From Nanobdellota archaeon (GTDB lineage: Archaea > Nanobdellota > Nanobdellia > Pacearchaeales > GW2011-AR1): a stretch of DNA of 64,000 nt. This document shows positions 14,621 to 63,892 of the stretch, piece after piece. The notes beneath the pieces were generated by a model. The model had not been told where the DNA came from. It worked only from the letters and a program-made list of their open reading frames with translations, and made no database searches. Within the stretch, counting starts at the first letter, position 1; the number at the start of each line of letters is the position of its first letter. Made by a program: the position numbers and the translations under genes. The stretch covers positions 1,587-65,586 of the forward strand of contig JAGVNG010000008.1 of NCBI GenBank assembly GCA_020053375.1, in the 5' to 3' direction.

Positions 14621-15688
14621 ATGAAAACTCCAGAACTAAAGCCCCTTCTCGCGGAAAGACTGAAATTATTAATGCCAGACAAAGAAGACTTTAATTCCTT
14701 CCTTGAAATACTAAAGAAGCCAACCCAAAATTCAATCCGTTGCAACACTTTAAAAATCAGTCCTGAAGAACTCAAAGAAAGGCTGGAAAAAAAAGGCTGG
14801 AAAATCTCTCAGCCTTTCATAGAATATAAAGAAATTATGATAGTAGATGGAAAAATTGCTAATGAAAAAATAACTGATTCTCACATTAACAATAAGCATC
14901 AATCTGCGAGCGCTGTGCCTGGAGCTTCAGCCAAGGATAGCGAGAATAAACTACAGGATTTAGCGCCAGGCGAGCTCGGTCGTTCTCTCGAGCATCTTCT
15001 CGGATATTATTATGTCCAGGAAATTGCAAGTATGCTTCCTGTTCTTGCACTCAAGCCAAAGCCAGGAGAAACTATTCTTGATTTATGCGCTGCGCCTGGG
15101 AGCAAAACAACACAGATAGCCAGCAAAATGAAAAACTCCGGCACTCTGATTGCAAATGACGTGAATCTTGGAAGAATAAGAATTCTTGTAACTAATCTTG
15201 AGCGTTGCGGGATATCAAATACAATTGTTACAAGAAATCAGGGATTTATGCTATGCAAAAAGCTGAAATCCCAAGGATTTCAGTTTGATAAAATTCTTCT
15301 TGATGCGCCGTGTTCAGGAGAAGGCACATTAAGAAGCAATAAAGCTACTTACGAAATGTGGAATATTCAGTCAGTAAAAAATCTTTCAAATATACAAAAA
15401 GCCCTTATCGCTTCTGCAATTGATTTATTGAAAAAAGACGGTGAGCTTGTTTATAGCACATGCACTCATTCGCCCGAAGAAAATGAGGAAGTTTTGGATT
15501 TTGTTTTGAATAAATTTAAAGGAATTGTTAATGTGGAAAAAATAAACCTGCCGGTTAAATGCAGGGTTGGATTAACAAAGTGGAATGCGGAGCAATATAA
15601 TAAAGATGTTGAAAAAGCCTGCAGAATTTACCCTCAAGACAACGACACAGAGGGATTCTTTGTTGCTAAGTTAAGGAGGATAAAATAA
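14621..15688 (+). CDS. NOL1/NOP2/Sun-family RNA cytosine-C5 methyltransferase carrying a GC-rich in-frame insertion
   Basis: DLCAAPGSKTTQIA (SAM-binding), DAPCSGEGT and TCT motifs; roughly 50-aa low-complexity insert (KIANEK...SASAVPGASAK...) around nt 14849-15000. Confidence 0.8.
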   Translation: MKTPELKPLLAERLKLLMPDKEDFNSFLEILKKPTQNSIRCNTLKISPEELKERLEKKGWKISQPFIEYKEIMIVDGKIANEKITDSHINNKHQSASAVPGASAKDSENKLQDLAPGELGRSLEHLLGYYYVQEIASMLPVLALKPKPGETILDLCAAPGSKTTQIASKMKNSGTLIANDVNLGRIRILVTNLERCGISNTIVTRNQGFMLCKKLKSQGFQFDKILLDAPCSGEGTLRSNKATYEMWNIQSVKNLSNIQKALIASAIDLLKKDGELVYSTCTHSPEENEEVLDFVLNKFKGIVNVEKINLPVKCRVGLTKWNAEQYNKDVEKACRIYPQDNDTEGFFVAKLRRIK

Positions 15689-16374: not shown

Positions 16375-16839
16375 ATGGAATACATAAAGATACTAACAGA
16401 ACACGAAAAGAAGAAAATTGAACAAAAACTCAATGAGCAATTTGGAATAAAGGGAATCCCAGGAAAAATTGTGATGAGAGGAGCTGAAAGACTTTCAGTC
16501 TTCACAGGCAATGCCGATGAAAAGGAAATAAGAAAGATAGAGGAAATTGCGCCAATAGAAAAAGCCGGGGTTTATTTTGCAAAACTCATAAATGAAGACA
16601 TCAAATTGACAATAGAAGGAACGCAGATACTCCAAGAGCAGATAAAAAAAGGCATTTTCGAAATAAATGACGGGCAGGCAGAAGAGTGGATGATGGGAAG
16701 GGAGTTAAACATAAAGACAGGACTAAGAGGATTTGTTGTTATGAAAAACCGAAGTGACTTGTTGGGATGCGGGAAAGCCTCTGAAAACAAGATAACTAAT
16801 TTCATTCCAAAATCAAGAAGATTGAAAAATAGAGGATAA
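16375..16839 (+). CDS. possible PUA-domain (Nip7-like) RNA-binding protein
   Basis: C-terminal GLRGFVVMKNRSDLLGCGKA resembles a PUA beta-barrel; weak. Confidence 0.3.
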   Translation: MEYIKILTEHEKKKIEQKLNEQFGIKGIPGKIVMRGAERLSVFTGNADEKEIRKIEEIAPIEKAGVYFAKLINEDIKLTIEGTQILQEQIKKGIFEINDGQAEEWMMGRELNIKTGLRGFVVMKNRSDLLGCGKASENKITNFIPKSRRLKNRG

Positions 16840-16985
16840 ATCACTCGCTGACGCTCGCTTATGACGATAATGTAATTCACGGAAATATTATTGTTAATAT
16901 AAAAACTTGCTGATAAATTTATTATGGTTATTCTCATCCACAAAACATTAAAACCCATTATTCTCTATAATTATATACAAATAAA

Positions 16986-17199: not shown

Positions 17200-18087
17200 A
17201 TGGAACCGACAGACAAGGAAAAAATCCTGAAAGCAGGCAAAATCGCAAGCGAAACAAAGAAATACGCGAAAGCGATTGCAAAAAAAGGTGTGCCTTTGCT
17301 TGAAATAGCTGAAAAGATTGAGGCTAAAATCGAGGAACTCGGAGGAAAACCCGCATTTCCTGTAAACCTAAGCATAAACGATATTGCAGCTCATTACACT
17401 CCCGCGCATGATGACAAGACTCTTGCGAATGGATTGTTGAAAGTAGACTTAGGAGTTCACGTGGATGGATGGATTGCAGACACTGCCTTTTCATTGGACC
17501 TTGAAAACAATGAGGAGAACAAAAGGCTTATTTTGTCTTCTGAAAGCGCACTACAAATTGCATCAAAAACAATAAAGTTCGGGATAAAAAACAACGAGAT
17601 AGGCAAAAGAGTTGAAGAAGCAATAAGCTCTGGTGAAATCTCTCCAATAATAAACCTAAGCGGGCATGGCATTGACAAATATGAACTTCATTCAGGAATA
17701 ACAATTCCAAACATAGACAACGGGCAGGAAATTCCATTAAAAGAAGGTTTGTATGCAATAGAACCATTCACAACAAACGGTGCAGGCAAGGTTTATGATG
17801 GAAAAGATTCTGGAATTTATGAAATGGTGTCGGAAAGAAATATCAGAAGCCAAGGGGCAAGGGAAGTTCTGGACTTCATAATAAAAGAATATAGCACTCT
17901 TCCATTCTGTTCCAGATGGCTGCATAAAAAGCTTGGAGCAAAATCCCTATTAGTATTGAAGCAGCTCGAGGCAAATGGAAATCTTCATCAGTTTGCATTG
18001 CTTATGGAAGCCGGGCATGGAAAGGTTGCGCAAGCAGAAAATACATTCTTGGTAACAAACAAAGAAGTTATCGTGACTAGTGAGTAA
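17200..18087 (+). CDS. map: methionine aminopeptidase, type 2
   Basis: Archaeal MetAP2-like sequence (AAHYTP, VDLGVHVDGWIAD, HSGHGI-like) including pita-bread fold metal ligands. Confidence 0.85.
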   Translation: MEPTDKEKILKAGKIASETKKYAKAIAKKGVPLLEIAEKIEAKIEELGGKPAFPVNLSINDIAAHYTPAHDDKTLANGLLKVDLGVHVDGWIADTAFSLDLENNEENKRLILSSESALQIASKTIKFGIKNNEIGKRVEEAISSGEISPIINLSGHGIDKYELHSGITIPNIDNGQEIPLKEGLYAIEPFTTNGAGKVYDGKDSGIYEMVSERNIRSQGAREVLDFIIKEYSTLPFCSRWLHKKLGAKSLLVLKQLEANGNLHQFALLMEAGHGKVAQAENTFLVTNKEVIVTSE

Positions 18088-18931: not shown

Positions 18932-19156
18932 TTATTTAATAACCTCCTCGCTAAATTGCTGCATCAAAGTCTGATAAGCCTGTGAATTTTTGCATGCAGA
19001 GCAATTATACATTGGTTCGTTTTCTCCAAGAAAATCAGGCTGGTCAAAAGCGTATACAAAAACCCTCCCTCCCTTGCATACTCCGCAATACGCAGATAAA
19101 TTTTTAGGAGTTTCTGGAGCATTCCCATCTTGTGTTTTATTTTCGAGGGTTGTCAT
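18932..19156 (-). CDS. small zinc-ribbon protein (paralog B, in tandem with A)
   Basis: CGVCKG...VYAFDQP...CSACK: same architecture as the upstream paralog. Confidence 0.4.
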   Translation of the reverse strand: MTTLENKTQDGNAPETPKNLSAYCGVCKGGRVFVYAFDQPDFLGENEPMYNCSACKNSQAYQTLMQQFSEEVIK

Positions 19157-19482
19157 TTTAATTGCGTTCCCTCATCCAGAGTTTTTAATTTTTTAATTTT
19201 AACAAAGGCAGGTGGAAACCAATTTTTATCCTCTTCATAACCCCAAGAGTTTTTTGGAAGTAATTCGTTATGACGCAAAGCAATTCCATCAGTAGTATCC
19301 CATCCTTGTTTTAGCCAAAAATCAATTTCAGATTCCTCTTTATCTTCATAAGCTTTTATCCTATATTCCATTATTTCCTTAGAGGTTAAAGGAGTTAATC
19401 CTTCTGAAATTAAGAAAGGCATTAAATTTGTATAGGTGTTACTAAGCTTCCAATAATCTTGAATTAATTTTGTTTTTCCCAT
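19153..19482 (-). CDS. hypothetical protein
   Basis: 109-aa ORF. Confidence 0.3.
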   Translation of the reverse strand: MGKTKLIQDYWKLSNTYTNLMPFLISEGLTPLTSKEIMEYRIKAYEDKEESEIDFWLKQGWDTTDGIALRHNELLPKNSWGYEEDKNWFPPAFVKIKKLKTLDEGTQLK

Positions 19483-19574
19483 CCCCTTCCCTATCCCCCC
19501 CCATTTATAAATCTTACTATATTGTAACTACTATATAGTTATACAATTATGCAATAAAACCTCACAGTTCAGAA

Positions 19575-21902
19575 TTAACCCAAATAGCTATTACCCATAG
19601 GAATTGACGCCGTTGCTGACTTCAAAAAGTTCTCTTCAACTTTTTTATAAACTTCCAGCACACTCTTGTTTACGCTTGGCTTGACCTTTTTAAGAGCATC
19701 CTCAAAATGAACACGCGTAACCATTTTGGAACTCATAGACTCTCGAAGTGCAATAAGAGCTGCCTCTCTCGCCAGCGCCTCCAAATCAGCTCCCGTATAT
19801 CCTTCTATCTTTTTTGCAATTTCACCAAGCATCTTCTCCCTTTCCTTTTCATCATATAATTTCTTCCCGTCTCCCAATGGCATGTTCTTGGTATGTATCT
19901 TAAGAATCATCATTACTCCTTCCTTCTCTGGCGCATTCACAAGAAGAATCTTATCAAATCTTCCTGGCCGAAGAATAGCAGGATCAAGTATGTCAGGCCT
20001 GTTTGTGGCAGCAATAACCAGAATGTCCTTCAAATCAGTTATTCCATCCATTTCCGCAAGCAACTGATTTAGAACTCTTTCAGTAACCTTAGTTCCCATC
20101 TCCATTCCTCTTTTTCCTGCAAGCGCGTCTATTTCATCAAAGAATATAACACATGGAGCAACTTGCCTAGCCCTCTCGAAAATCTTTCTTACTCCTTCCT
20201 CTGACTTTCCAACCCACATGCTCAAGAGGGAAGGTCCCTTGACTTGTATGAAATTAGCTTCTGACTCTTTTGCAACAGCCTTTGCAAGCAGTGTTTTCCC
20301 TGTTCCAGGAGGCCCGTATAATAAGATTCCTCTTGAGGGCCTTATTCCCATTCTCTCGAAGCTGTCTTTGTATTTCAAAGGCCATTCAACAGCTTCTCGA
20401 AGCTCTTCCTTGACCGTGTCCAACCCTCCAACATCCGCCCATGAAACATTTGGAGTTTCAACAAAAATCTCCCTCATTGCGGAAGGCCTTACAACCTTTA
20501 GCGCGTCCAAAAAGTCCTGATGATGAATAACTAATTTTTCCAAGAACTTAGGAGATATCTGTTCGTCTCCTTCTATTTTCATATCTGGAAGAAGTTTTCT
20601 AAGAACATTAATTGCGGCTTCTTTTGCAAGCGCTTCCAAATCAGCTCCAACAAATCCGTGTGTGATGGAAGCCAATTCCTCAAGCTTGACATCTCTTGTC
20701 AAAGGCATTCCTCTAGTATGAATCTTTAGTATGTTCAATCGTCCTTCCTTATCCGGCACATTTATTTCTATTTCCCTATCAAATCTTCCAGGTCTTCTTA
20801 ATGCAGGATCAATTGCATTTATTCTGTTTGTTGCCCCTATGACTATTACTTTTCCTCTTGATTTCAATCCGTCCATCAGTGTTAAAATCTGGGAAACAAC
20901 TCTTCTCTCAACTTCTCCTGTTACTTCTTCTCTCTTTGGAGCTATGGCATCAAGCTCGTCAATAAATATAATTGCGGGCGCTGTTTTTTCAGCTTCTTCG
21001 AATATGTCCCTAATTTTTTTCTCGCTTTCTCCGTAGAATTTTGACATTATCTCAGGACCATTTAACAAGATAAAGTTTGCATCTGTTTCATTGGCAACAG
21101 CCTTTGCCAACAGTGTTTTCCCTGTTCCAGGAGGGCCATGCAATAAAACTCCCTTTGGAGGCTCTATGCCAAGCCTTTCAAAAATTTCTGGCCTTTTCAA
21201 TGGTATCTCAACCATTTCCCTTACTTTTTTTATTTCATCGCTTAACCCCCCAATATCCTCATAGGTTATCTCGGGAATTTTTTCATCGCTTATTTCAACT
21301 GCTTTGGAGTTCAAAACCAAATCAGTGTTTTCAGTGATTATAACTGGCTGGCTGGGAGTGGAATTTACCACGACAAACTTTATCTGCGTGATTCCGCCAA
21401 AGTGCCCCATATTCATTCCTTCAAAGATGTCACCAAGATTTCCGAAAATATCATTCAAATCCCCAAATTCTTCTGAAATCAAATCCCTTCTTCTCTGCAC
21501 TCCTCCCAACACCACAACATCTCCCTTCATTACGGCTCTTCCCAAAAGTCCTCTTCTAAGGCTTTCAGGATCTGCCTGAACCATTATTCCTTTTTGTGCG
21601 GGCGCTATTGTAACCTTCTTAGCTTCCTTAACTTCCGCCTTCGTAATAGTTACTGTTTCCCCTATAGCTGCTTTCGCGTTTCTCCTCAATATTCCGTCTA
21701 TTCGTATTATTCTCTCGCCGACATCTGCGGGATATGCTCTGTCTGCAATCGCAACAGTTTCTCTGTTTCCTTTTATGATTATTATATCTCCTCTTCTTAT
21801 ATCAAGATCCTTCATCGTTTCAGCATCTATTCTAGCAATTCCCTTGTATGCATCATCCTGCAATGCTTCCACAACCTTTAGCTGAACCTGTTTATTGGTC
21901 AT
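19575..21902 (-). CDS. cdc48: CDC48/VCP-like AAA+ ATPase (tandem D1/D2 AAA domains)
   Basis: Two GPPGTGKT Walker A motifs, two DExD Walker B motifs, N-terminal double-psi barrel-like region, 775 aa. Confidence 0.9.
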
Positions 21903-25200: not shown

Positions 25201-25749
25201 ATGGAATACAAAAAAAAGCAGGGGGTTTTGGAAGAGGTTTCAGAAGTGAGATTTGCAATAGACCAATATGATGATATCTTCTCTGATTTTGATCCTAGAC
25301 CCGATTCGGTAAGGGGTTTTTCAGAGGACTTTCTGTCTGAAGCAGAAAGAGCAGTTATGTCAAAAAATTCAGAAAAAATAAATTTCGTAATCATGATTGA
25401 GAAAGAAAAGAGAAATTTAAAGGAAGAAACAATCGTGAAAAACAGGCTGAAGAAATATTTCGAGAAATATTACGAGATTATGAAAAAGAAAAAAGCTGGT
25501 ATAATTAAAAAAGGTGTTTATTTCATTTTATCTGGAATAATTCTAATGTTCGCCGCAACTTTTTTGTTATTTAATTTCAAACAGGAAAGTCTCTTTACAA
25601 GCTTCTTTACCATTCTTCTAGAACCAGGTGGATGGTTTTTGTTCTGGAAAGGGCTTGAACTTGTACTCTTTGAAGCAAAGGAAGAAACTCCAGATTTGCA
25701 GTTTTATGAAAGAATGGTCAATTCAAATATAAAGTTTGATTCTGCCTGA
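25201..25749 (+). CDS. membrane protein
   Basis: Two adjacent hydrophobic helices in the C-terminal half. Confidence 0.4.
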   Translation: MEYKKKQGVLEEVSEVRFAIDQYDDIFSDFDPRPDSVRGFSEDFLSEAERAVMSKNSEKINFVIMIEKEKRNLKEETIVKNRLKKYFEKYYEIMKKKKAGIIKKGVYFILSGIILMFAATFLLFNFKQESLFTSFFTILLEPGGWFLFWKGLELVLFEAKEETPDLQFYERMVNSNIKFDSA

Positions 25750-25750
25750 T

Positions 25751-25785
25751 AAATGGCCCCGATGACCTTGGGACTAAAGCGTTAC
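25751..25785. repeat. copy 1 of the tRNA-Lys 3'-end core repeat (ATGGCCCCGATG plus a conserved tail)
   Basis: aaatggccccgatgaccttgggactaaagcgttac; the core is identical to tRNA nt 26896-26907. Confidence 0.7.
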
Positions 25786-26347: not shown

Positions 26348-26422
26348 GTGATTTTATGTGTATTTGGTGTGCATTTGAGATGCATCAGGGGTATTTAAGC
26401 TTTTCTTAAATCAAAAGTGCTA

Positions 26423-26456
26423 AATGGCCCCGATGATCTTTAATATAAAGTGATAC
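26423..26456. repeat. copy 2 of the tRNA-Lys 3'-end core repeat
   Basis: aaatggccccgatgatctttaatataaagtgatac. Confidence 0.7.
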
Positions 26457-26843: not shown

Positions 26844-26896
26844 TATTAATTATAGAATAAGACCTATTTATTATTTATGGTATCAAAAAGTTTGGA

Positions 26897-27014
26897 TGGC
26901 CCCGATGGGATTTGAACCCACGACACCTGGATATCTCCTCGTTTGTACAAAGAGGTACAGAACCTAAGTCCTGCGATAAGAGTCCAGTGCTCTACCAGAC
27001 TGAGCTACGGAGCC
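26897..27014 (-). tRNA. tRNA-Lys(CTT) with a 44-nt intron at the canonical 37/38 position
   Basis: GGCTCCG-TA-GCTC-AGTCTGGTA-GAGC-A-CTGGA-CTCTTA[intron]A-TCCAG-GTGTC-GTGGG-TTCAAAT-CCCAT-CGGGGCC-A; acceptor and T stems pair (one G.U each). Confidence 0.75.
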
Positions 27015-27800: not shown

Positions 27801-28067
27801 TTATCTAATCAAAGTCTGTATATTATCAATGGCATCTGCGACATTTCTGCCTTTCTTGGTCAGTCTGATCAATTTTATTCGCCCCTTTTTCTCAAACTCA
27901 ACCAGACCCAATTCTTCAAGCGTCTGCAGAATCTTTACTGCATGGCTATATGTGCAGTCTACTTCCTTAGCCAGAATACTCCCATACCTTATTCTAACAT
28001 TCTTTTTCAAAGACACCAGCATTAGAGCCGGCTTTCTCCTGAAAAAGATATCAAAGTTGTCTTTCAT
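27801..28067 (-). CDS. winged-helix DNA-binding protein
   Basis: YSHAVKILQTLEELGLVEFEKKGRIKLIRLTKKG: HTH plus wing. Confidence 0.5.
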   Translation of the reverse strand: MKDNFDIFFRRKPALMLVSLKKNVRIRYGSILAKEVDCTYSHAVKILQTLEELGLVEFEKKGRIKLIRLTKKGRNVADAIDNIQTLIR

Positions 28068-28134
28068 TGTAGGTGATTGTATATATCCTTTTAATATGGA
28101 TATCTTAATGTATATATCCAGAAAATATCTTCCT

Positions 28135-28227
28135 TTTAAATCTTTTGGAAGATAGTTCCTAAAAAGTTTATTGAGACTTTATCGATTTAAATCTTTTGGA
28201 AGATAGTTCCTAAAAAGTTTATTGAGA
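28135..28227. repeat. two perfect 42-nt tandem copies (period 51 nt) in the divergent promoter region
   Basis: tttaaatcttttggaagatagttcctaaaaagtttattgaga at 28135-28176 and 28186-28227. Confidence 0.85.
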
Positions 28228-28276
28228 ATTTTTTGCTTGTCAGAATATTTATTAATAGACGTATCTATAAAATTTT

Positions 28277-28906
28277 GTGAAAGAAAAAATACCAACCAGA
28301 AAAACAAAGATATTGGCGATCGGAGACATACACGGTGACACCGGGCTTGTCAAAAAGCTTGCCGAAAAGGCGCAAAAAGAAAATGTTGATATTGTGATAC
28401 TTGCAGGAGACTTAACTTTTGCAGAAATGTCAGTCAAAGATCTTATAGGGCCTTTTGCTAAGGCAAAAAAAGATGTTTTGCTTATTCCGGGAAATCATGA
28501 ATCAGCTTCCACAATAAACTTCCTTGCAGAAATGTACAAGCCATATGCAAAAAATCTTCATGGATATTCATTCAAAAGAGGAAACCTCGGAATCTTTGGT
28601 TCAGGAGGAACGGACATAGGAATTCATTGGATGCCTGATGCGGAAATCTTCAATCTTTTGCAAAAAGGGCATAATGAAATAAAAGATATGCACAAAAAGA
28701 TAATGATTACACATATGCACCCCCTCGGAAGCAAAGCAGAAGAATTTGGATTTAAGGGCTCAAAAGCAATAACAAAGGCAGTGTATAAATTCAAGCCAGA
28801 TGTGCTAATAACCTCGCATATACATGAAGCTTCAGGGCTTGAGGAAAACTTTGGGAAGACAAGAGTGATAAATGTAAGCAGAAAAGAAAAGGTGTTTGAG
28901 ATATAA
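28277..28906 (+). CDS. calcineurin-like metallophosphoesterase
   Basis: ILAIGDIHGD, ILAGDLT, GNHE motifs. Confidence 0.75.
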   Translation: MKEKIPTRKTKILAIGDIHGDTGLVKKLAEKAQKENVDIVILAGDLTFAEMSVKDLIGPFAKAKKDVLLIPGNHESASTINFLAEMYKPYAKNLHGYSFKRGNLGIFGSGGTDIGIHWMPDAEIFNLLQKGHNEIKDMHKKIMITHMHPLGSKAEEFGFKGSKAITKAVYKFKPDVLITSHIHEASGLEENFGKTRVINVSRKEKVFEI

Positions 28907-29680: not shown

Positions 29681-32176
29681 ATGCTCAGAAAAAGAAAGAT
29701 AAAGCCAAAAGAGCAAAAAGCCGCAGAGGAATTCTTTCCAGTTGATGCAGAGGATATTAAAAGAACAACTGAAAAAATAGTTAGAGAGATTCCCTCTTCA
29801 AACATTTTGGGAGCTGTAACAAAAATAATAAAAACAGAAGAAAAACAGGTTGAAAAAGCGATAAAATCGTTGACCAAGCCGAGGAGCCGTGTAAAAAGGC
29901 CAAAAAAGATAACCGAAGAAAAGAAGGAATATTCCCCTTCTAAAATAATCCTAAAACAAGGAGGCTATGAGATGATAATAACCGAGAAGCCTCAAGCAGC
30001 CTTGAAGATTGCAAATGCCTTAGGAAAGGCGTTAGGAAAAGATGTAAGGGGGGTTCCATATTACGAAGTGAACAGGCAAGGAAAAAAAATAATTGTTGCG
30101 TGTGCGGTTGGCCATCTTTTTACACTCAGACAAAACAATCCCAGTCAAAAATTGCCTGTGTTTGACATAAGTTGGGTTCCAAATTATCTTGCTCTAAAAA
30201 AAGACTTTACAAAAAGGTACTATGATACTTTGATGAAACTTGCAAAAGACGCAGGAAGCATAACAATAGCAACAGACTATGATATTGAAGGAGAGGTGAT
30301 AGGATTAAATGTAATGAGGTTTATCTGCAACCAGAAAGACGCAAACAGGATGAAATTCTCAACCCTCACAGATAAGGAATTAGATGAGGCTTACATTTCC
30401 AAGGCAAACAGCCTCAATTGGGGACAGGCAATTGCAGGAGAGACAAGACATTATCTTGACTGGTTTTACGGAATAAATCTCAGCAGAGCGTTAATGAATG
30501 CGATAAAGCTCACGGGAAAATTCAAAATAATGTCTATAGGAAGAGTTCAGGGGCCTGCCTTAAATCTTATTGTTAAAAAGGAAAGAGAAATTGAAGCATT
30601 CAAACCGCAGACATATTGGCAAGCTTTCATAACCCTCGCAAAACCCGCAGTTGAATTAAAATACGTGAAGGATATATTCGACAAGGCAGAACTATCAAAA
30701 TTTGATAATATCATAGGAAAAAAAGCAACGGTGACAACAACGAAATCACAGCAAGTTATTCCTCCAAATCCTCCATTTAATCTCACAAACTTGCAGACAG
30801 AAGCATATGCTCTTCATGGAATAACTCCCTCAGCAGCCCTGAGAGCCGCACAGTCATTATACCTCGCAGGGTTAATATCATATCCAAGAACATCAAGCCA
30901 AAAGCTTCCTGATTCAATAGATTATACAACAATATTAAAGAAACTTGCGAGGCAATACAACACCGAATCATTAATCAAAAGGAGCGCTCCTGTAGAAGGA
31001 AAGAAAACAGACCCTGCCCATCCCTCAATATATCCAACTGGAAACACACAAAATCTTGATGGAGACGAGGCAAAGGTATACAATCTTATTGCAAGAAGAT
31101 TTATTTCATTGTTCTGCGGAGATGCTGTTGTTGATAATAAAAATATAAAGGCAGAGGTTAATATTGAAGGAAAAATTGCTAATGATAAAACTAATAAATT
31201 AAGAGGTAAAATTGGCGATAAAGATTCAGCTATTAACAGTAATATCAATAATAATACAAATAAGCGAGCCGCTGTGTCTGGAGCTTCAGCCAAGAAAGGC
31301 GAGCGAGATAATATTCTCATCTTCTCAGCAAGAGGCAGCGCTATTGCAGACAAAGGATGGATGGAAGTTTATCCTACAAAAATTATTGAAAAGACTCTGC
31401 CCGATGCAAACGGAGAAATAAAAATAGGAAAATCGCGAGCAGAGGAAAAAGAAACCCAGCCGCCGCATAGATATTCACCTGCTTCCATACTCTCTGAATT
31501 GGAAAAAAGAAATTTGGGAACAAAAGCCACACGAGCAGCAATCCTTGAGACATTATATGACCGTGGCTATGTTAAGGAAAAAAGCATTGAGGCAACTCCA
31601 CTTGGAATCTCGCTGATATCAACTCTTGAAAGGCATTCACCAATTATAATAAATGAAGAATTGACAAGAAGCTTTGAGAAAGACATGGACCAGATTCTTC
31701 AATCAAAGAAAGACTTGAATGTAAAGGAAGAAAAAGTCAAGGAAAAGGCTAAGCAAGCCATAACGGAAATAACAACGCAATTTGAAAAAGAAGGAAGCAA
31801 AATAGGGGAGGAACTTATGGAGGCGCAGGAAGAGGAAAGGCAGAATCAAAGAGAAAAAAATAAAATAATGCTTTGCCCTGTTTGCAATAAGGGAAGTCTT
31901 GCAATAACATACTCAAAAAAGAACAGAAAGTTTTTCATCGCCTGCAATGCATATCCTGACTGCAAAACAACTTATTCCTTGCCTCCTTTCGGAACAGTCA
32001 AAAAATTAGAGCCTGAAAAGCTCTGTGAGAAATGCAATTATCCTATGCTAATGTCTCTGCAAAAGGGAAAGAAGCCATGGATATTCTGCTTCAACAGAGA
32101 GTGTCCCACAAATCAGGAGAGGTTGAAGAAGTATAGGGAGAAGAAAGAACAGGAGAACAAAAATGCAAATAGTTAA
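29681..32176 (+). CDS. topA: type IA DNA topoisomerase with C-terminal zinc ribbons and a GC-rich in-frame insertion
   Basis: Toprim (MIITEKPQAALKIANALG, ATDYDIEGEVIG), active-site region GLISYPRTSS, C-terminal CPVC...C / C..C ribbons; low-complexity insert KIANDK...RAAVSGASAKK at about nt 31169-31310. Confidence 0.85.
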   Translation: MLRKRKIKPKEQKAAEEFFPVDAEDIKRTTEKIVREIPSSNILGAVTKIIKTEEKQVEKAIKSLTKPRSRVKRPKKITEEKKEYSPSKIILKQGGYEMIITEKPQAALKIANALGKALGKDVRGVPYYEVNRQGKKIIVACAVGHLFTLRQNNPSQKLPVFDISWVPNYLALKKDFTKRYYDTLMKLAKDAGSITIATDYDIEGEVIGLNVMRFICNQKDANRMKFSTLTDKELDEAYISKANSLNWGQAIAGETRHYLDWFYGINLSRALMNAIKLTGKFKIMSIGRVQGPALNLIVKKEREIEAFKPQTYWQAFITLAKPAVELKYVKDIFDKAELSKFDNIIGKKATVTTTKSQQVIPPNPPFNLTNLQTEAYALHGITPSAALRAAQSLYLAGLISYPRTSSQKLPDSIDYTTILKKLARQYNTESLIKRSAPVEGKKTDPAHPSIYPTGNTQNLDGDEAKVYNLIARRFISLFCGDAVVDNKNIKAEVNIEGKIANDKTNKLRGKIGDKDSAINSNINNNTNKRAAVSGASAKKGERDNILIFSARGSAIADKGWMEVYPTKIIEKTLPDANGEIKIGKSRAEEKETQPPHRYSPASILSELEKRNLGTKATRAAILETLYDRGYVKEKSIEATPLGISLISTLERHSPIIINEELTRSFEKDMDQILQSKKDLNVKEEKVKEKAKQAITEITTQFEKEGSKIGEELMEAQEEERQNQREKNKIMLCPVCNKGSLAITYSKKNRKFFIACNAYPDCKTTYSLPPFGTVKKLEPEKLCEKCNYPMLMSLQKGKKPWIFCFNRECPTNQERLKKYREKKEQENKNANS

Positions 32177-45415: not shown

Positions 45416-46207
45416 ATGCATAAAATAATTGTTATAACTTCTGGAAAAGGGGGGGTTGGAAAAACAACCACCGCGATAAATCTGGGCGCGGCAATAAATC
45501 AGTTCGGGGGGGATGTTGTAGTCATTGATGCAAATCTTTCCACGCCCAACGTGGGAGTTCATCTTAATTCTCCAGAAGCGCCTGTAAATCTAAATCACGT
45601 TTTGTCCGACAAGGCAGAGGTTTTTGAGGCAGTATATGAGCACGAGTCTGGACTAAAAATAATTCCTTCTTCACTTTCCATAAAAGAGCTAAAGAAGATA
45701 AGACCGGAAAAAATGAAAGACTATAGAAAAGATTTCAGGAAAATTGCTGATTACATAATAATGGACAGTTCAGCAGGATTGGGAACAGAGGCTCTTTCTG
45801 TCATAGATGTCGCTGATGAAATAATAATAGTAAGCAATCCTGAAATGCCTGCCATAACAGATGCTCTTAAAACAATAAGGATTGCAGAACAGATGCGGAA
45901 GCCAATAATAGGAGTTATAATAACAAGGGTAAGAAAAAATGACGCAGAATTGCAGCCAGACGTTGTCAGGGACATGCTGGAAGTGCCCATATTGGGAATG
46001 GTTCCAGAAGATTCAACCATACAGGAAGCTCTGTCTATGAAAAATGCAGTGGTTCATACTCATCCAAAAAGCGCATCCGCTCGCGCATACAAGGAAATAG
46101 CTGCTAGAATAATGGGCGTGAAATATGATTCTGAAAAAGATACGGAAAACATTCTGGAAAAAATCCTACGGAAATTCAAAATAACAAAATGGGAAAAAAA
46201 GCGATAA
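45416..46207 (+). CDS. minD: MinD/ParA-family P-loop ATPase
   Basis: ITSGKGGVGKTTTAINLG deviant Walker A. Confidence 0.8.
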   Translation: MHKIIVITSGKGGVGKTTTAINLGAAINQFGGDVVVIDANLSTPNVGVHLNSPEAPVNLNHVLSDKAEVFEAVYEHESGLKIIPSSLSIKELKKIRPEKMKDYRKDFRKIADYIIMDSSAGLGTEALSVIDVADEIIIVSNPEMPAITDALKTIRIAEQMRKPIIGVIITRVRKNDAELQPDVVRDMLEVPILGMVPEDSTIQEALSMKNAVVHTHPKSASARAYKEIAARIMGVKYDSEKDTENILEKILRKFKITKWEKKR

Positions 46208-47022
46208 ATAGTTTTATTCCAAAGAAATTATTGTTCTTATTTATTATTTTTATTCTCGCCGCAAATGCAAGCGCGCAGGAGCTTCCAAATTTTCAGGACA
46301 AGCATGTCAATGACTTTGCGCATGTGTTCAGCGATAATGAATCACAGCAGTTAAAAACAATTCTGATTGAGCTTGAGCAAAACACAACAGCAGAGGTGGT
46401 TGTTGTGACTGTCAATACTACTTTCCCATTAACTCCTGCACAATATCGAACAGAACTATTCAATTATTGGAAAATAGGAAAAGCAGACAAGGATAACGGA
46501 CTGCTGATATTGTATTCCCGGAGCGAAAATAGGATTGAGGTGGAGACAGGTTATGGTTTGGAGGGAATTCTGCCTGATTCCAAATTAGGAAGAATGCTTG
46601 ATGATTATTATGTGCCGCAGCGTGATAATGGAAATGTTACACAAGGCATCCTCTCGTTTACACAAGAAGTTTCTAAAGTTATCAAAAATAACTCAGCAGA
46701 AATATTATCTCCCTCTAAAAATAACAATTACATTGCAGATTTATTCCCTTATATTATTTTCATTCTAATTTTTATTGCAATGTCTCTTATGTCCAGAAGA
46801 AAAAATAAAAAATGCGCAAAAGACGGCTTGATAATGAAATATATTGGCATGGCTGGAGGCTATTCCATTTACAAATGCGCAAATGGACATATTATCAAAG
46901 AGAAGGGTAGCAGAAACATGAGTGGAGCACTTATCGGCGCAGGAATGAGTGGAGGAGGTGGAGGTTTCGGTGGCGGAGGCTTTGGCGGGGGCATGAGCGG
47001 CGGCGGAGGAGCAGGAAGATAG
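46189..47022 (+). CDS. TPM-domain (YgcG/TLP18.3-like) protein with C-terminal TM and Gly-rich tail
   Basis: HVNDFAHVFSDNE...GLLILYSRSENRIEVETGYGLEGILPD. Confidence 0.65.
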   Translation: MGKKAINSFIPKKLLFLFIIFILAANASAQELPNFQDKHVNDFAHVFSDNESQQLKTILIELEQNTTAEVVVVTVNTTFPLTPAQYRTELFNYWKIGKADKDNGLLILYSRSENRIEVETGYGLEGILPDSKLGRMLDDYYVPQRDNGNVTQGILSFTQEVSKVIKNNSAEILSPSKNNNYIADLFPYIIFILIFIAMSLMSRRKNKKCAKDGLIMKYIGMAGGYSIYKCANGHIIKEKGSRNMSGALIGAGMSGGGGGFGGGGFGGGMSGGGGAGR

Positions 47023-47780: not shown

Positions 47781-48125
47781 ATGACAGAAGGCATAATTTC
47801 TTTCTCAGATTGGCAAAACCTTGATTTGAGGGTTGGAAAAATCATCAAGGTCGAGGACATAGAAGGCGCTGACAAATTATACAATCTTTCAATAGATTTG
47901 GGAAAAGAGCTGGGAAAAAGGACGCTTGTCGCAGGAATAAAACCCTATTACAAACCCTCAGAACTAAAAAACAAGTTATGTATAGTTTTCTCAAACCTTC
48001 AGCCAAGAACACTTAAAGGAATAGAAAGCCAGGGAATGCTTTTGGCAGCGGTATCAAAAGATGAAAAAGAAGTCAGGCTTCTCTGTCCTGATGCGGAAGT
48101 GGAATTGGGAAGCAAAGTTAGGTAG
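47781..48125 (+). CDS. tRNA-binding protein (Trbp111/CsaA-type OB fold)
   Basis: LDLRVGKIIKVEDIEGADKLYNLSIDLGKE...SQGMLLAA. Confidence 0.75.
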   Translation: MTEGIISFSDWQNLDLRVGKIIKVEDIEGADKLYNLSIDLGKELGKRTLVAGIKPYYKPSELKNKLCIVFSNLQPRTLKGIESQGMLLAAVSKDEKEVRLLCPDAEVELGSKVR

Positions 48126-50406: not shown

Positions 50407-50421
50407 AATTTTATTGCTTTC

Positions 50422-50468
50422 TTCTCTGCCCCGATGAAGGCATAGAATTGGGAAGCAGGGTGAGATAA
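50422..50468. repeat. intergenic repeat family B, copy 2
   Basis: ttctctgccccgatgaaggcatagaattgggaagcagggtgagataa. Confidence 0.8.
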
Positions 50469-51488: not shown

Positions 51489-51526
51489 ATGTAAACTATA
51501 AATGACGGCTGATATTTAAAGTTTAC

Positions 51527-51573
51527 GGTTCCCTTCTTCAGCCAGACAAGGACATAGAATTGGGAAGCAAAGT
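51527..51573. repeat. intergenic repeat family B, copy 3 (diverged 5' part)
   Basis: ttcttcagccagacaaggacatagaattgggaagcaaagtaagataa. Confidence 0.75.
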
Positions 51574-51658
51574 AAGATAAAAAATATATCTCTATATTCT
51601 CCCAAAATAAACCGTCATCCTAACTAATCCCCTAAAAATTAAAATCTTGGCTGCTTGC

Positions 51659-56517: not shown

Positions 56518-56628
56518 GAGCCTGTAGTTCAGCCTGGTTAGAACGTCGCTCTGATATAATGCTCAAAGAAGCAGTTCCAAGAGAATTTAGAAAGGCGAAG
56601 GTCCACAGTTCAAATCTGTGCAGGCTCA
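56518..56628 (+). tRNA. tRNA-Ile(GAT) with a ~36-nt intron at the canonical position
   Basis: GAGCCTG-TA-GTTC-AGCCTGGTTA-GAAC-G-TCGCT-CTGATA[intron]A-GGCGA-AGGTC-CACAG-TTCAAAT-CTGTG-CAGGCTC-A. Confidence 0.7.
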
Positions 56629-60231: not shown

Positions 60232-61959
60232 ATGAAGTATTCAAAGCTCTGTGAGTTATACGACAATATTTCAGGAACACCAAAGCGTCTTGAAAAGACA
60301 GACATACTTGCGAAATTCCTGAAAGAGCTTGCGGATTCGGACAAGGAAGCATTATATCTTCTTCTGGGAGAAATTTATGCCGATTATGATGAAAAGAGAA
60401 TTGGCATAAGCAATCAGCTAGTGATTAAGGCAATTGCAAAATCAACAGGGACTCCCAATGAAAAAGTGGTTCATGAATGGAAGGTAATCGGGGACCTTGG
60501 AAAAGTTGCTGAAAAACTTGTTTCTAAGAAAAAGCAATCAACTCTTTCATCGCATTCCGAAGTTACTGTCCAAAAGGTTCTTGAGAATTTGAGAAAACTG
60601 CCTGACTTAGAAGGTAAGGGAACAGTGGAAAAGAAAATCTCTCTGATAACCGAACTCCTGTCGTCTGCCTCGCCAAAAGAGGCATTGTACATAATTAGAA
60701 CACTTCTTTCTGACTTGAGAATAGGAATAAAGGAAAGCACCATCAGAGACGCGCTCGCGAAAGCATTTTTCAAGGAAAGTAAAAAAGACGCAATAAGAGA
60801 AATACAGGATGCCATAGACAAATCAAATGACATAGTTGAAGTTTTTGAGATGACTAAAAAAGGAAAGCTAAAGGACTTAAAGAAAGTGCACCTTGAAATT
60901 GGGAAACCCATCAAAGTCATGCTTGCCCAAAAAGCAAAAAACATCAAAGAAGCTTTTGAGGCTGTTGGAAAGCCATGCGCAATTGAATACAAGTATGACG
61001 GATTCAGAATGCTGATTCACAAGAAGGGCAATGAGGTAATCCTATTCACCAGAAGACTGGAAAATGTAACAAAGCAGTTTCCAGAGGTTATTGATTATGT
61101 AAAAAAATATGCCCGGGGAGATTCATTTATTCTTGATTCAGAGGCAGTTGGCTTTAACAGGCAAACAAAACAATACACTTCTTTCCAGAACATAAGCCAG
61201 AGAATAAGAAGAAAATATGATATAGAAAAACTGCAAGACGAGCTTCCAGTAGAGGTAAATGTTTTTGACATTCTTTATTATAATGGTGAGGCTCTTCTTG
61301 ACAAGCCTTTTAAGGAAAGAACAGAATTAATTAGGAAGATAGTGAAAAGTTCTCCTTACAAAATAATTCATGCAAAGCAGATAATAACCTCTGATGAAAA
61401 AAAAGCTAATGAGTTCTACAAGCAGGCATTAAAAGATAACCAAGAGGGAGTTATGTTCAAGAATCTCACTGCTATTTACCAGCCAGGAAAAAGAGTTGGA
61501 CATATGCTTAAAATAAAACCCGAAGGCAGAGACTTGGATTTGGTTATTACAGGAGCAGAATATGGAACAGGAAAGCGTTCAGGATGGTTTTCAAGTTTCA
61601 TCTTGTCATGCAAGGATGAAAAAACAGGAAAATATCTTGAGATAGGAAAAATGGGAACAGGGGTGAAGGAAAAATCCACAGCGCAGTCTGGGATAGGAAT
61701 ATCATTTAATGAACTTACTGAAAAACTCAAGCCATTAATCACAAAAGAGTCTGGAAAGACGGTTGAAATAAAACCAAAAATAGTTGTTGCAATAACATAT
61801 CAGGAAATCCAGCCTTCTCCAAATTACAATTCAGGCTTTGCATTGAGATTCCCCCGGTTCACTGCATTGCGTCCAGATAAAAGTCCTAGTGACGCCAATA
61901 CATTAGATAACGTCAAGAAGGATTTTGGAAGGCAGAAAAGAAACTGGCGATATGGCTAA
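60232..61959 (+). CDS. lig: ATP-dependent DNA ligase
   Basis: KYDGFRM (KxDG adenylation motif), EGVMFK, DLVITGAEYG. Confidence 0.85.
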   Translation: MKYSKLCELYDNISGTPKRLEKTDILAKFLKELADSDKEALYLLLGEIYADYDEKRIGISNQLVIKAIAKSTGTPNEKVVHEWKVIGDLGKVAEKLVSKKKQSTLSSHSEVTVQKVLENLRKLPDLEGKGTVEKKISLITELLSSASPKEALYIIRTLLSDLRIGIKESTIRDALAKAFFKESKKDAIREIQDAIDKSNDIVEVFEMTKKGKLKDLKKVHLEIGKPIKVMLAQKAKNIKEAFEAVGKPCAIEYKYDGFRMLIHKKGNEVILFTRRLENVTKQFPEVIDYVKKYARGDSFILDSEAVGFNRQTKQYTSFQNISQRIRRKYDIEKLQDELPVEVNVFDILYYNGEALLDKPFKERTELIRKIVKSSPYKIIHAKQIITSDEKKANEFYKQALKDNQEGVMFKNLTAIYQPGKRVGHMLKIKPEGRDLDLVITGAEYGTGKRSGWFSSFILSCKDEKTGKYLEIGKMGTGVKEKSTAQSGIGISFNELTEKLKPLITKESGKTVEIKPKIVVAITYQEIQPSPNYNSGFALRFPRFTALRPDKSPSDANTLDNVKKDFGRQKRNWRYG

Positions 61960-62485
61960 TATTAAACCTGTCAAAATAATCCACAAAGGTTCCATCTTCG
62001 TCTAATATATTTCCTTTATGTTTGATAACCCCTTCAAAATAACGCTTATCTTTGAGCCATCCATACATTAATTCGTCTCCAGCATTCTTCGGAACAAGGG
62101 GTACGTCTCTTTCATCAATCCATAAAGGTGTTCCTTCATTGCCTTCCCCCTTTAGTTCGCCACTATAATTTTTGGCACTAAAAACATATACCAAAAAATC
62201 CGTAGGATTTTTCCAATTGGGAAAAATTCTTTCTTTATTGTCAAATAAAATAACTCCTCTTAGTTTAGGCTTAATCAAAATCAAACCTGTTTCCTCATTT
62301 GTTTCTCTTATTGCCGATTCCAATCTTCCATCAAGGTTATCCAAACCTTTTTCGTTACTATCTAATTTTCCACCAGGCAAGGCATACAACCCTGAATTAG
62401 GGTCATTTTCCCTTACTTTCTTTTTCATCATCAAAACTTTGTCTTCAGCAGAGAGGTAGGAAATTGTTGCATATTTCATTTCCAC
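61913..62485 (-). CDS. NUDIX hydrolase
   Basis: GGKLDSNEKGLDNLDGRLESAIRETNEETGL (Nudix box GX5EX7REUXEEXGU). Confidence 0.75.
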   Translation of the reverse strand: MEMKYATISYLSAEDKVLMMKKKVRENDPNSGLYALPGGKLDSNEKGLDNLDGRLESAIRETNEETGLILIKPKLRGVILFDNKERIFPNWKNPTDFLVYVFSAKNYSGELKGEGNEGTPLWIDERDVPLVPKNAGDELMYGWLKDKRYFEGVIKHKGNILDEDGTFVDYFDRFNISHIASFFSAFQNPS

Positions 62486-62500: not shown

Positions 62501-63520
62501 TTAATAAAAATTTGTATACTTCTGTTCAACTTTTTTCCTTAATTTAAAAGCATTAGCCCACTTTGCATAAGCGTTCCATCCTTGGAGGATTTCCGCCATT
62601 TTACTGCCTGATATTTTTCCTCGATTAAATTTTCCCATTTTTCTTTCAATATTTTTTATATTCTTTTTTCTTAATAATTTATAATAATAGAAATTCCTGA
62701 AACCGACAAAATCAATTCCTCTTGATAATAAGATAATTCTTGACTTATCTGGGTGAAGTTCCAGTTTTAATTTTTCTTCTAAGAATTGACTTATTCGTTC
62801 TTTCAAATTTTCTAATTGTTCTTTTGAATTGTGCAAAATAACAAAATCATCAACATATCTTATGTAATGCTTAGCTTTAAGCAAGTGTTTGACAAAATAG
62901 TCAAGTTCATTAAGATAAACATTTGCAAAAAATTGGGATGTTAAATTCCCTAAGGGCATTCCCTTTCCAGAGGGATTGTCTGAAACATTATTATTCAAAA
63001 TTCTTTTAATAAGCCAGATTACTCCTTCATCTTTTATCCTTCTTTTTATTATATTAAGAAGGATTTTATGATTAACTTCCTGAAAATAATGCTTTATGTC
63101 TGCTTTAAGGCAATATCCAGAAGAAGCATGGTTTTTGGTAACTTTTCTTCTAAATCTTTCAAATCGCTTCAAAGCAAATAAATTTCCTCTGCCTTTTCTG
63201 TTTGCGCATGAATCATAGATGAATGTCCTATCAAAAATAGGCTCAATAACCCTTACCAATGCATGATGAACAACCCTATCTTTAAAATTAGATTTTGAGA
63301 TTTTTCTCGTTTTTGGGTCTCTCAAAATGAATGTTATCAGAGATTTTGGTTTATAATAAAAGTATTTCAGTTCATAGTGCAGTGCTTTTAAATTATCCCT
63401 CAAATTTTTTTCAAATTCAATGACGTAATCTTTTTTTGTTTTGCTCTTTCTTGCCTTTTGCCATGCAAGAATTAAATTTCTCATTGAATAAATTTTAGGA
63501 TAAAGATTATCAGTTTCCAT
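62501..63520 (-). CDS. diversity-generating retroelement (DGR) reverse transcriptase
   Basis: RT motifs: RKISKSNFKDRVVHHAL (1/2), CLKADIKHYF (3), GMPLGNLTSQFFANVYLNELD (4; LGNLTSQ is the DGR-type [ILV]GxxxSQ rather than QGxxxSP), YIRYVDDFVIL (5, YxDD), LELHPDKSRII (6/7), IDFVGF; compact 339 aa; TR immediately upstream. Confidence 0.85.
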   Translation of the reverse strand: METDNLYPKIYSMRNLILAWQKARKSKTKKDYVIEFEKNLRDNLKALHYELKYFYYKPKSLITFILRDPKTRKISKSNFKDRVVHHALVRVIEPIFDRTFIYDSCANRKGRGNLFALKRFERFRRKVTKNHASSGYCLKADIKHYFQEVNHKILLNIIKRRIKDEGVIWLIKRILNNNVSDNPSGKGMPLGNLTSQFFANVYLNELDYFVKHLLKAKHYIRYVDDFVILHNSKEQLENLKERISQFLEEKLKLELHPDKSRIILLSRGIDFVGFRNFYYYKLLRKKNIKNIERKMGKFNRGKISGSKMAEILQGWNAYAKWANAFKLRKKVEQKYTNFY

Positions 63521-63550
63521 ATTAGCATCAAAGTCCTGAAAATATGGGCT

Positions 63551-63676
63551 ATTCCGAGGTCAGAATTCCTGTTGGAAGGATTCCTGTTGCAGTTGAGGTT
63601 AGCCCTGTCAGAATTGGCATTGAACCTGGCAACTTTTAGCCAATTTACCAATTCAAAAACTTTAAAAGTTTTCACC
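63551..63676 (-). repeat. DGR template repeat (TR). Only 63551-63627 can be aligned inside the window; the upstream boundary is inferred
   Basis: 63554-63627 aligns to VR 63927-64000 with 14 mismatches, all at TR adenines on the minus strand; the in-frame translation is Asn(AAC/AAT)-rich (FNANSDRANLNCNRNPSNRN). Confidence 0.8.
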
Positions 63677-63698
63677 GAATCTGTCCGCGGACAGATTC
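63677..63698. promoter_or_regulatory. perfect 22-nt palindrome GAATCTGTCCGCGGACAGATTC between the target-gene stop and the TR
   Basis: Self-complementary over its full length; sits at the likely 5' boundary of the TR transcript. Confidence 0.4.
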
Positions 63699-63892
63699 TG
63701 TATTTTATGACTTAAAATAAATCTAAATAATGTTCTAGTAAATTGACGTGTAGTCCATATTTATCTCTCTTGCTTCAGCATTTTTCAATTGCTCATTTTA
63801 AAAGATGCTTAAAAGACACTTTCAGGACAAACCATCAAATGAATGGATGTTTAAAAATTTTGTGTTTGTTCTTATAAATGTTTCCAGCGAGC

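Follow-up and report, generated by a model that had tools for sequence, protein, structure and literature searches.

The nearest described counterparts of the element discussed here are the Rickettsia palindromic elements (RPE), first reported by Ogata et al. in 2000, as reviewed in PMC2229807. They are palindromes bounded by terminal inverted repeats of around 12 bp (PMC2229807, Table 1); their inserts have been found in 19 reading frames, and the product of a gmk gene that bears one stays active (PMC2229807). In the archaea, as cited in the same review, Suyama et al. (2005) described, in Methanocaldococcus jannaschii, repetitive elements that are palindromic and have coding potential. Here, we describe a DNA cassette that occurs in two unrelated genes of a 64,000-nt stretch of contig JAGVNG010000008.1 (below, the window is this stretch at its full length), which has a GC content of around 35% and which, to judge from its nearest protein relatives, comes from the Pacearchaeota/Nanoarchaeota group of DPANN archaea. 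Like an RPE, the cassette is a repeat of about 100–150 bp, lies in frame within conserved housekeeping genes that are unrelated to one another and is apparently translated and tolerated; RPE also lie between genes, where the cassette is represented by core motifs alone. Unlike an RPE, the cassette of the window has no palindrome or terminal inverted repeats; it also has a hypervariable interior, keeps to the same codon across an order, is archaeal (DPANN) rather than alphaproteobacterial, and has no sequence relationship to RPE. The M. jannaschii repeats offer an archaeal precedent for open-frame repeats fused into protein genes; they are described there as palindromic, which the cassette is not, so that the two are set apart by description rather than by sequence. 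The cassette is best read as an archaeal variant of RPE-type repeats that is not palindromic and lacks the structural features defining those families.

Other systems resemble it in part. The mobile GC clusters of yeast mitochondria are short GC-rich blocks in an AT-rich genome, which sometimes lie in coding sequence and are sometimes nested; they are mostly palindromic and have defined target duplications. GC blocks of 24 nt and around 60 nt that are nested in the cassette behave similarly, but they belong to another domain of life, and the window cassettes show neither palindromes nor target duplications. In Plasmodium, where the genome is AT-rich, housekeeping enzymes contain Asn/Lys-rich disordered loops that change in length by slippage; these are not known as a homologous cassette common to several genes. 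The cassette shares with them the Asn/Lys-rich loops and the slippage-type change in length, but common descent is evident from its arms and GC core. A patchy presence at one fixed position in conserved genes is also typical of inteins and of archaeal bulge-helix-bulge (BHB) introns; the cassette differs from both in having only 35–48 aa, in beginning with Gly-Lys, in lacking splice-junction residues and a BHB, and in keeping the frame.

Two Homologous Inserts in Unrelated Genes

The first host gene (14621–15688, + strand) encodes a NOL1/NOP2/Sun (RsmB/F-type) RNA m5C methyltransferase (NSUN) of 355 aa, as identified from the translation of its open reading frame (ORF) and from PF01189/PF17125 in its orthologues. 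The second (29681–32176, + strand) encodes, again according to ORF translation, a DNA topoisomerase IA of 831 aa with Toprim, Topoisom_bac and zinc ribbon domains. Copy 1 of the cassette (14849–14953, + strand; 35 aa, GKIANEKITDSHINNKHQSASAVPGASAKDSENKL) takes the place of the N in the uninserted hairpin turn E-N-D/E-L of NSUN. Copy 2 (31169–31312, + strand; 48 aa, GKIANDKTNKLRGKIGDKDSAINSNINNNTNKRAAVSGASAKKGERDN) is at the tip of a hairpin between strands 482–494 and 545–557 of topoisomerase IA. Both sites are in frame within their host ORFs, as had been claimed in an earlier, sequence-only reading of this DNA, which proposed a small mobile repeat of the RPE type inserted into two unrelated housekeeping genes. 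The borders were set against the 120 best relatives plus 73 genomic loci for NSUN and against 120 orthologues for topoisomerase IA. The NSUN insert, which had been put at about 50 aa, thereby shrinks to 35 aa because QDLAPGELGRSLEHLLG is host sequence kept in all orthologues; the last 16 residues formerly assigned to it (QDLAPGELGRSLEHLL...) are conserved host sequence.

The 17-mer GGAAAAATTGCTAATGA, which had been noted as the common start, has exactly two occurrences in the window, at 14849–14865 and 31169–31185, and is part of a conserved 5' arm, GA(T/A)GGAAAAATTGCTAATGA(A/T)AAAA, that encodes (D/E)GKIAN(E/D)K (14846–14870, + strand; 92% identity with 31166–31190, family D11). Further downstream, GCTGTG[C/T]CTGGAGCTTCAGCCAAG is found at 14912–14935 and at 31271–31294, nowhere else in the window even when up to three mismatches are allowed, and not once in 100 shuffles. 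The GC-rich block of the two copies, previously estimated as about 85% identical, is 88% identical over 34 ungapped nt (family D19). Within its 24-nt part, seven codons are identical in both window copies, and several of these are rare: given the codon usage of the window, the probability that the seven common residues were independently encoded by identical codons is around 5e-4, and the corresponding probability for the 5' block is around 8e-3. Since the shuffles give no match and such codon identity is improbable by chance, the inserts are not a by-product of composition: the two window inserts are homologous DNA, and the possibility that their similarity is confined to a low-complexity bias, which the sequence-only reading had itself raised, is thereby contradicted.

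Except for a duplication, the NSUN and topoisomerase IA cassettes align colinearly over their whole length. The two shared blocks are spaced by 35 nt in the NSUN copy and by 74 nt in the topoisomerase copy; the difference arises because the 5' arm of the latter contains an internal tandem duplication of 36 nt (GKIANDKTNKLR at 31169–31204 and GKIGDKDSAINS at 31205–31240, + strand; family D2, AGGAAAAATTG and AGGTAAAATTG, 36 nt apart). On sequence comparison, the GC-rich core of copy 1 consists of the first unit of a GCGAGCG direct doublet (14906–14912, + strand), which is the core of this flavour of cassette and has counterparts at the same place in other genomes (GCGAGCGATAGCGAGCG in L005 and GCGAGCGGTAGCGAGCG in L084); a nested 24-nt GC-rich block, CTGTGCCTGGAGCTTCAGCCAAGG, encoding AVPGASAK (14913–14936, + strand) and flanked by two GCGAG units; and the second unit, GCGAG (14940–14944, + strand), followed by the 3' arm, AATAAACTA. 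The core of copy 2 (31264–31307, + strand) likewise consists of GCGAGCCG, the 24-nt block CTGTGTCTGGAGCTTCAGCCAAGA (31272–31295) and AAGGCGAGCGAG. A 1-nt indel in the topoisomerase copy causes the first GCGAGC to be read in another frame, as KRA rather than SAS.

Architecture and Core Flavours of the Cassette

In other genomes too, EGK[F/I/Y]AN[D/E]K opens the inserts of NSUN, topoisomerase and methionine aminopeptidase. The common architecture comprises this 5' arm, a tract of Asn/Lys/Asp/Ser that varies in length, a (D)S(H)(I/V)NN stretch and a GC-rich core of several flavours. The first flavour is the GCGAGCG doublet, with QSASDSER or NKRAEGER as its peptide, depending on the frame. The second is made of compact G-quadruplex-type runs (GGVGG, GGGRGSGG). 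The third, F3, is around 60 nt long, contains two hairpins (GEQFHETKLQNSQREKLRIG), with a hairpin element that encodes GEQFHETKLQNSQRE, and is nested in the run of G that marks the G-rich flavour. All three occur in both NSUN and topoisomerase across genomes, and the G-rich type is also found in the aminopeptidase. Stems in other flavours have apparently compensatory changes (GTGGCAT/ATGCCAC, GTGACAT/ATGTCAC, GCGATTT/AAATCGC).

Some insert types lack this architecture, namely a two-hairpin element (ISSEAIRN...SLKETSGCLS), a related ISHEQKL... type and a short KVDGQGNLG type; the first is common to NSUN and the DNA polymerase PolB, and each of the other two was seen in NSUN as well as in topoisomerase. 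The two-hairpin element, of around 80 nt, is in frame in NSUN and PolB genes (L034, 10205–10378 and 4521–4658; L032, 5331–5462; L052, 2256–2375), and its stems differ between copies in a seemingly compensatory way; in the NSUN gene of L034, 21 nt of host sequence (CCTGAAGTAATGATTGTTGAA) are duplicated around it, and a 19-nt fragment of it lies outside ORFs at L034 2937–2955. A non-ORF region of L014 (3498–3633) is a 62-nt tandem repeat of 2.2 copies that includes ATCAGCCATGAGCAG, which encodes the ISHEQ flavour; the hosts of this flavour are NSUN (L010) and topoisomerase orthologues. A motif of the G-quadruplex type is also present at a second site in NSUN: in its C-terminal region, SGWAGGE, encoded by the compact motif GGGTTGGGCGGGTGGGG, replaces TKWNAEQ (L007, 7678–7694; L059, 6779–6799; L079, 2872–2886). 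Finally, at a distance of 5 nt from the insertion point in the window, L085 (= P0028) contains a GC-rich block of 24 nt that is unrelated. The extra NAQAWSFG of P0028 was considered as the window block read in another frame, and this was refuted, since the L085 DNA, AATGCCCAAGCGTGGTCGTTCGGG, is a different GC-rich block.

Distribution among Orthologues and Further Host Genes

The 120 NSUN relatives fall into two length classes. In the class of 317–323 aa, the turn reads ...IMIIE-N-D/E-L-x-PGELG; in that of 340–400 aa, the N is swapped for (E)GK[F/I/Y]AN[D/E]K ... x-L-[I/Q/V]. The insert, described in the sequence-only reading as absent from homologues, is in fact present in 58 of the 120 orthologues, so that only about half are without it, and parsimony on a neighbour-joining tree of the host part of the protein requires around 27 changes. 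In topoisomerase IA, the majority turn reads ...IKADVDG-LMFSAKG, and there is an insert at that turn in around 20–25 of the 120 orthologues. In five topoisomerase orthologues (P0150, P0164, P0170, P0184 and P0240), the insert VISHEQKLKGKLSEENHRLSR lies between duplicated copies of a host strand (IDNKKVSVKVNN ... IDNKKVSAIVDN), a duplication of about 36 nt that has no counterpart in the window copies. The alignment of both host proteins with their orthologues thus fixed the borders of the inserts and, at the same time, revealed same-site inserts in many orthologues, which speaks in part against mobile insertion. An ancestral domain would have been expected to show the latter; a simple ancestral domain is nonetheless insufficient, because the distribution is very patchy (some 27 changes among 120 NSUN sequences) and because sub-variants freely cross gene boundaries. 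As judged from these alignments, the cassette family spans the Pacearchaeota/Nanoarchaeota lineage.

By means of conserved NSUN peptides, 80 genomic loci were retrieved, of which 72 were scored for the NSUN frame, together with L084 and the window itself. The sample is free of gene-calling bias because the peptides used to fetch the loci lie downstream of the insert site. The distance between anchors in NSUN is 156–162 nt in around 50 uninserted genes and 192–393 nt in around 24 inserted ones.

Further insert sites were sought by an all-against-all comparison of the ORFs in the fetched loci, with hosts named by Pfam; this sample of hosts is biased, since the loci are confined to the NSUN neighbourhood. 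The M24 methionine aminopeptidase of L030 has an insert with the full cassette architecture (IEEKINANNKSEVAGSSVNNPSLGWEG), and the same enzyme is inserted in L007, L011 and L019; the window's own methionine aminopeptidase (17200–18087) is without an insert. Inserts related to the cassette are in the exonuclease region of PolB (L032, L034 and L052, of another flavour), in Trm5/TYW2 (L013, L020, L045, L065 and L069) and in a small PUA-like protein adjoining NSUN (L032 and L069); a second site of NSUN is also inserted (L010 and L013). A single contig of 608 kb, Ga0376277_0000080, has the cassette in NSUN, aminopeptidase and topoisomerase, and a related-looking peptide in Trm5; its NSUN and aminopeptidase genes have an exact run of 18 nt in common, AAAATGTTAATAATAAAA. 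The 64-kb window thus has two copies, and the 608-kb contig has, within around 40 kb, three clear copies plus a possible fourth.

Evidence for Copying between Genes

Over its 3' 77 nt, the NSUN cassette of the window matches the topoisomerase cassette of a related genome, L083 (= P0122), with 88% identity. For comparison, flanking orthologous host DNA is 79–82% identical, and the orthologous topoisomerase cassettes of the window and L083 are 73% identical. The 24-nt block between the GCGAG units is present in the window NSUN, the window topoisomerase and the L083 topoisomerase and is missing from NSUN in both L005 and L084 (= P0002), the latter sharing its source aquifer with L083 (both are close relatives from the Hainich H51 samples). 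In L034, the cassettes of NSUN and PolB agree at 89% over 74 nt and have a hairpin sequence in common; the PolB orthologues of L032 and L052 lack it and have a different stem that apparently covaries. Paralogous copies within one genome are, therefore, more alike than orthologous ones, which is a signature of copying between genes, either by transposition or by non-allelic gene conversion.

Core motifs also occur apart from the coding frames of the cassettes. GCGAGCG is found 33 times in 1.2 Mb, compared to 13.4 expected. One copy of the core doublet, GCGAGCGTCAGCGAG (16844–16858, − strand), is located directly past the stop of a + strand ORF (16375–16839), though also within a minus-strand ORF (16572–16958). 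The doublet GCGAGCG(T)CAGCGAGC, also written GCGAGCG(T)CAGCGAG(C), lies outside ORFs of at least 120 aa in L014 (at 9755) and L074 (at 4777 and 10690). The G-rich motif GGGCGGGCGGGTGGG is antisense in the Trm5 insert of L069, where it encodes PTRPP, and G-quadruplex motifs of this type are outside ORFs of at least 120 aa in L030 and L014. In L011, F3 has a perfect 10-bp stem, contains TGA and TAA triplets and lies outside ORFs of more than 100 aa. Outside coding sequence, only such core motifs (the doublet, the G-quadruplex motif and F3) were seen and never a whole cassette. These occurrences suggest conservation at the level of DNA rather than convergence of peptides.

Position in the Proteins and Translation

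AlphaFold2 models were made with around 90 homologues, and the mean predicted local distance difference test score (pLDDT) was 88.2 for NSUN and 80.3 for topoisomerase IA. In the NSUN model, the β-strand 72–79 continues into cassette residues G77-K78-I79; residues 80–110 then fall below a pLDDT of around 60, and residues 87–98 and 100–104 fall below 50. In topoisomerase IA, the residues with a pLDDT below 50 are 498–538. Both window cassettes are thus predicted to be disordered tips of β-hairpins in otherwise confident models, which agrees with the earlier proposal that such inserts are tolerated in surface loops. The N-terminus of the topoisomerase (residues 1–78; 29681–29914) is a Lys/Glu-rich extension that is also predicted to be disordered, with a pLDDT below 50 at residues 24–78.

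All 24 inserted NSUN genes from genomic DNA are in frame and free of stops, with 33–234 extra nt. An excised intron is unlikely, because it would have no need to keep the frame or to avoid stops in 24 of 24 cases; the inserts are, on this reading of the frames, translated and not spliced out. The predicted tryptic peptides of the cassettes would include ITDSHINNK and HQSASAVPGASAK.

Known classes of element were also considered. An archaeal BHB intron is not supported, since the frame is always kept and a scan for BHB motifs gave counts at the level of chance (none in the NSUN copy versus 1.5 in shuffles; five in the topoisomerase copy versus 2.2), none of them at the cassette borders. An intein is ruled out because the cassettes have 35 and 48 aa, start with GK and end with KL or DN, compared to a Hint domain of at least around 130 aa; inteins typically have an N-terminal Cys/Ser and a C-terminal His-Asn followed by Cys/Ser/Thr. 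A C/D-box small RNA was checked and found no support, and no covariance model of Rfam 15 came close to its gathering score with either the window cassette or the L034 element. The variable region of a diversity-generating retroelement (DGR) is ruled out too, since the template/variable pair of the DGR in the window (see below) is unrelated to the cassette and since the 24-nt block has only two copies.

Origin and Spread of the Cassette

Our preferred explanation, which we consider probable by a modest measure, is that of a translated and tolerated DNA cassette that is copied between genes by a route of the recombination or transposition type, and that would persist as a selfish or neutral sequence, not as a functional domain. 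The element would be specific to Pacearchaeota/Nanoarchaeota, around 100–150 nt long, inserted in frame at a β-hairpin turn and translated as a disordered loop. Its 5' arm, GAWGGAAAAWTTGCTAATGAWAAA (E/D-G-K-I/F-A-N-D/E-K), would prolong the host strand; the AT-rich Asn/Lys/Asp/Ser tract, followed by the conserved DSH(I/V)NN, would vary in length via tandem duplication or slippage; the GC-rich core (here, the GCGAGCG doublet) would take up GC-rich micro-insertions of 20–60 nt, such as the shared 24-nt block; and a short 3' arm would end the cassette. Copies would pass between unrelated genes of the same genome at the DNA level, the likeliest route being non-allelic gene conversion or a switch of template, with the conserved arms as primers. 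The first colonization of a gene would be rare, and a dedicated transposition activity might be involved at that step. Selection would then retain only frame-preserving insertions in surface hairpins, the interior being left to drift freely.

Several observations weigh against this explanation. The inserts of a given gene are all at the same codon, which fits a single old insertion followed by losses and lateral exchange of alleles, and the doublet flavour with QSAS/NKRA is confined to NSUN and topoisomerase. It is weakest in the contrast between paralogues and orthologues, which depends on short stretches (the 77-nt contrast, taken alone, has a p of around 0.04), and in the want of a mechanistic hallmark. 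The window cassettes are not palindromic: when they were folded, as the sequence-only reading had recommended, their energies were no better than those of shuffles (z-scores of −0.36 and −1.67). They have no terminal inverted repeats, no inverted repeat is common to both copies, and no direct repeats flank either copy as a target-site duplication; the cassette is, therefore, neither a classical miniature inverted-repeat transposable element nor an RPE. No transposase or recombinase is linked to the cassettes. The 64 kb of the window contain no more than two full copies, and the recommended search for more copies of the GC block gave none, either in the window (up to three mismatches) or by exact 20-nt scans of public collections: there was no match in GTDB genomes and there were two in JGI metagenomes, both in GC-rich bacterial DNA and attributable to chance, the source genome being evidently outside both sets. 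Nor did the NSUN protein of the window match any record when looked up by its exact sequence. A profile of 14 cassette peptides found nothing at E ≤ 10 in a word-indexed search, and an exhaustive HMMER search of 1.84 billion representatives found a single NSUN fragment; profile searches of this kind are defeated by the shortness and variability of the cassette. The earlier proposal of a mobile, RPE-like repeat is thus partly supported: homology, frame, loop location, several hosts and core motifs between genes are in its favour, and the lack of a palindrome, of terminal inverted repeats, of target duplications and of more than two full copies is not; a mechanism of mobility can only be inferred.

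One simpler explanation would be that each gene gained a lineage-specific loop once, anciently, and that slippage, repeated loss, compositional bias, allelic recombination and lateral transfer did the rest, with no copying between genes. The single codon position per gene and the many inserted orthologues would fit this, as would short remnants such as EGYKNGKEL, which suggest decay by internal deletion, and the AT-rich tract does indeed vary by tandem duplication. However, separate loops would not be expected to have the same rare codons across a 24-nt block that is in the window NSUN and topoisomerase and in the L083 topoisomerase but not in the NSUN cassettes of L084 and L005, nor to share the QSASDSER, NKRAEGER, F3 and G-rich sub-flavours between NSUN and topoisomerase (and, for the G-rich one, the aminopeptidase), nor to be closer within a genome than between orthologues; we regard this explanation as distinctly unlikely. 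Another possibility is that of a selected protein module, in which a flexible arm, rich in Lys/Asn and tipped by a Gly/Arg/Ser-rich segment, adds binding to nucleic acids or to a partner and spreads because it is useful. NSUN, topoisomerase IA, PolB, Trm5 and the PUA-like protein presumably all act on nucleic acids, as their Pfam families indicate, although methionine aminopeptidase is also among the hosts; GGRG/RGG-like stretches are present in many flavours, and the (E)GK[F/I]AN[D/E]K start is conserved as protein and extends the host strand. Against this, half of the orthologues manage without the insert, the interior is hypervariable in both length and sequence, the same DNA is found in different frames, antisense and outside ORFs, and the host sample is skewed to the NSUN neighbourhood, so that we find such a module rather doubtful.

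An element that acts at the level of RNA, either as a BHB intron or as a structured or G-quadruplex regulator of the mRNA in which coding is incidental, is very improbable. It would account for the hairpins with apparently compensatory changes in other flavours and for compact sense-strand GGGYGGGYGGGTGGG motifs, which are far from expected at around 35% GC; moreover, the two substitutions by which the window blocks differ, C14918 to T and G14936 to A, would be compensatory in a 5-bp stem, though L083 breaks the pair. It would not account for 24 of 24 inserts being in frame and stop-free, and the BHB scan without border matches, the folding no better than that of shuffles and the lack of an Rfam family are all contrary to it. 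A bolder version of the copied cassette is also conceivable, in which the inserts are the footprint of an active archaeal insertion system that targets the codons of β-hairpin turns and, perhaps driven by an enzyme, provides a landing pad for GC-rich, G-quadruplex and hairpin micro-elements, some copies having been co-opted as nucleic-acid-binding arms or as mRNA G-quadruplex switches; this, as things stand, is unlikely. A tolerated cassette that is copied between genes thus seems to us the explanation to retain.

Other Features of the Window

The right edge of the window (62501–64000, − strand) contains the DGR mentioned above, the target gene of which runs past the window end. Its reverse transcriptase (62501–63520; Pfam RVT_1) has the motif LGNLTSQ, which we take to be typical of DGR reverse transcriptases. 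The template repeat (around 63554–63626) and the variable repeat (around 63927–63999) differ at 15 positions in 75 nt, and all 15 mismatches are at template adenines. An Rfam RT-16 RNA (63631–63779; 62 bits) is between the repeats, and a NUDIX gene (61913–62485) adjoins the reverse transcriptase.

Rfam models detected two tRNA genes, one of 118 nt (26897–27014, − strand) and one of 111 nt (56518–56628, + strand), both of which presumably contain introns because of their length; a search of the window with ARAGORN gave no tRNA. The sequence ...AAATGGCCCCGATG recurs in three direct copies, at 25739–25764, 26410–26435 and 26882–26907, the last of which overlaps the 3' end of the first tRNA gene; they may be tRNA-end duplications of the integration type. 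A family of 62-nt repeats ending in ...AGAATTGGGAAGCA..GT.AG.TAA (48064–48125, 50407–50468 and 51519–51580) lies at or near the ends of ORFs. At 28135–28236, a 51-nt tandem duplication with 92% identity overlaps the end of one ORF (27829–28155) and reaches into the stretch before another (28277–28906). The most GC-rich stretch of the window (46951–47022) encodes the Gly-rich tail (GGGGGFGGGGFGGGMSGGGGAGR) of an ORF at 46189–47022. The sole G-quadruplex-type motif in the window is the run GGGGGGGGATAGGGAAGGGGATGGG (19478–19502, − strand), which is almost wholly between two ORFs (19153–19482 and 19575–21902).

Significance

In-frame selfish repeats in essential genes are a textbook matter in Rickettsia and are barely documented in archaea; here, they would extend across an order of ultra-small DPANN organisms, at fixed hairpin tips of enzymes of replication, RNA modification and protein maturation, and with GC-rich and G-quadruplex micro-elements nested within them. 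Such cassettes bear on the alignment, modelling and phylogenetic placement of the proteins that contain them, and a bimodal length distribution of marker genes would be one symptom. They could also serve as a ready marker for recombination between genes and between lineages and, in that they are apparently translated in essential enzymes encoded by a minimal genome, as a natural experiment on the tolerance of such enzymes to disorder.

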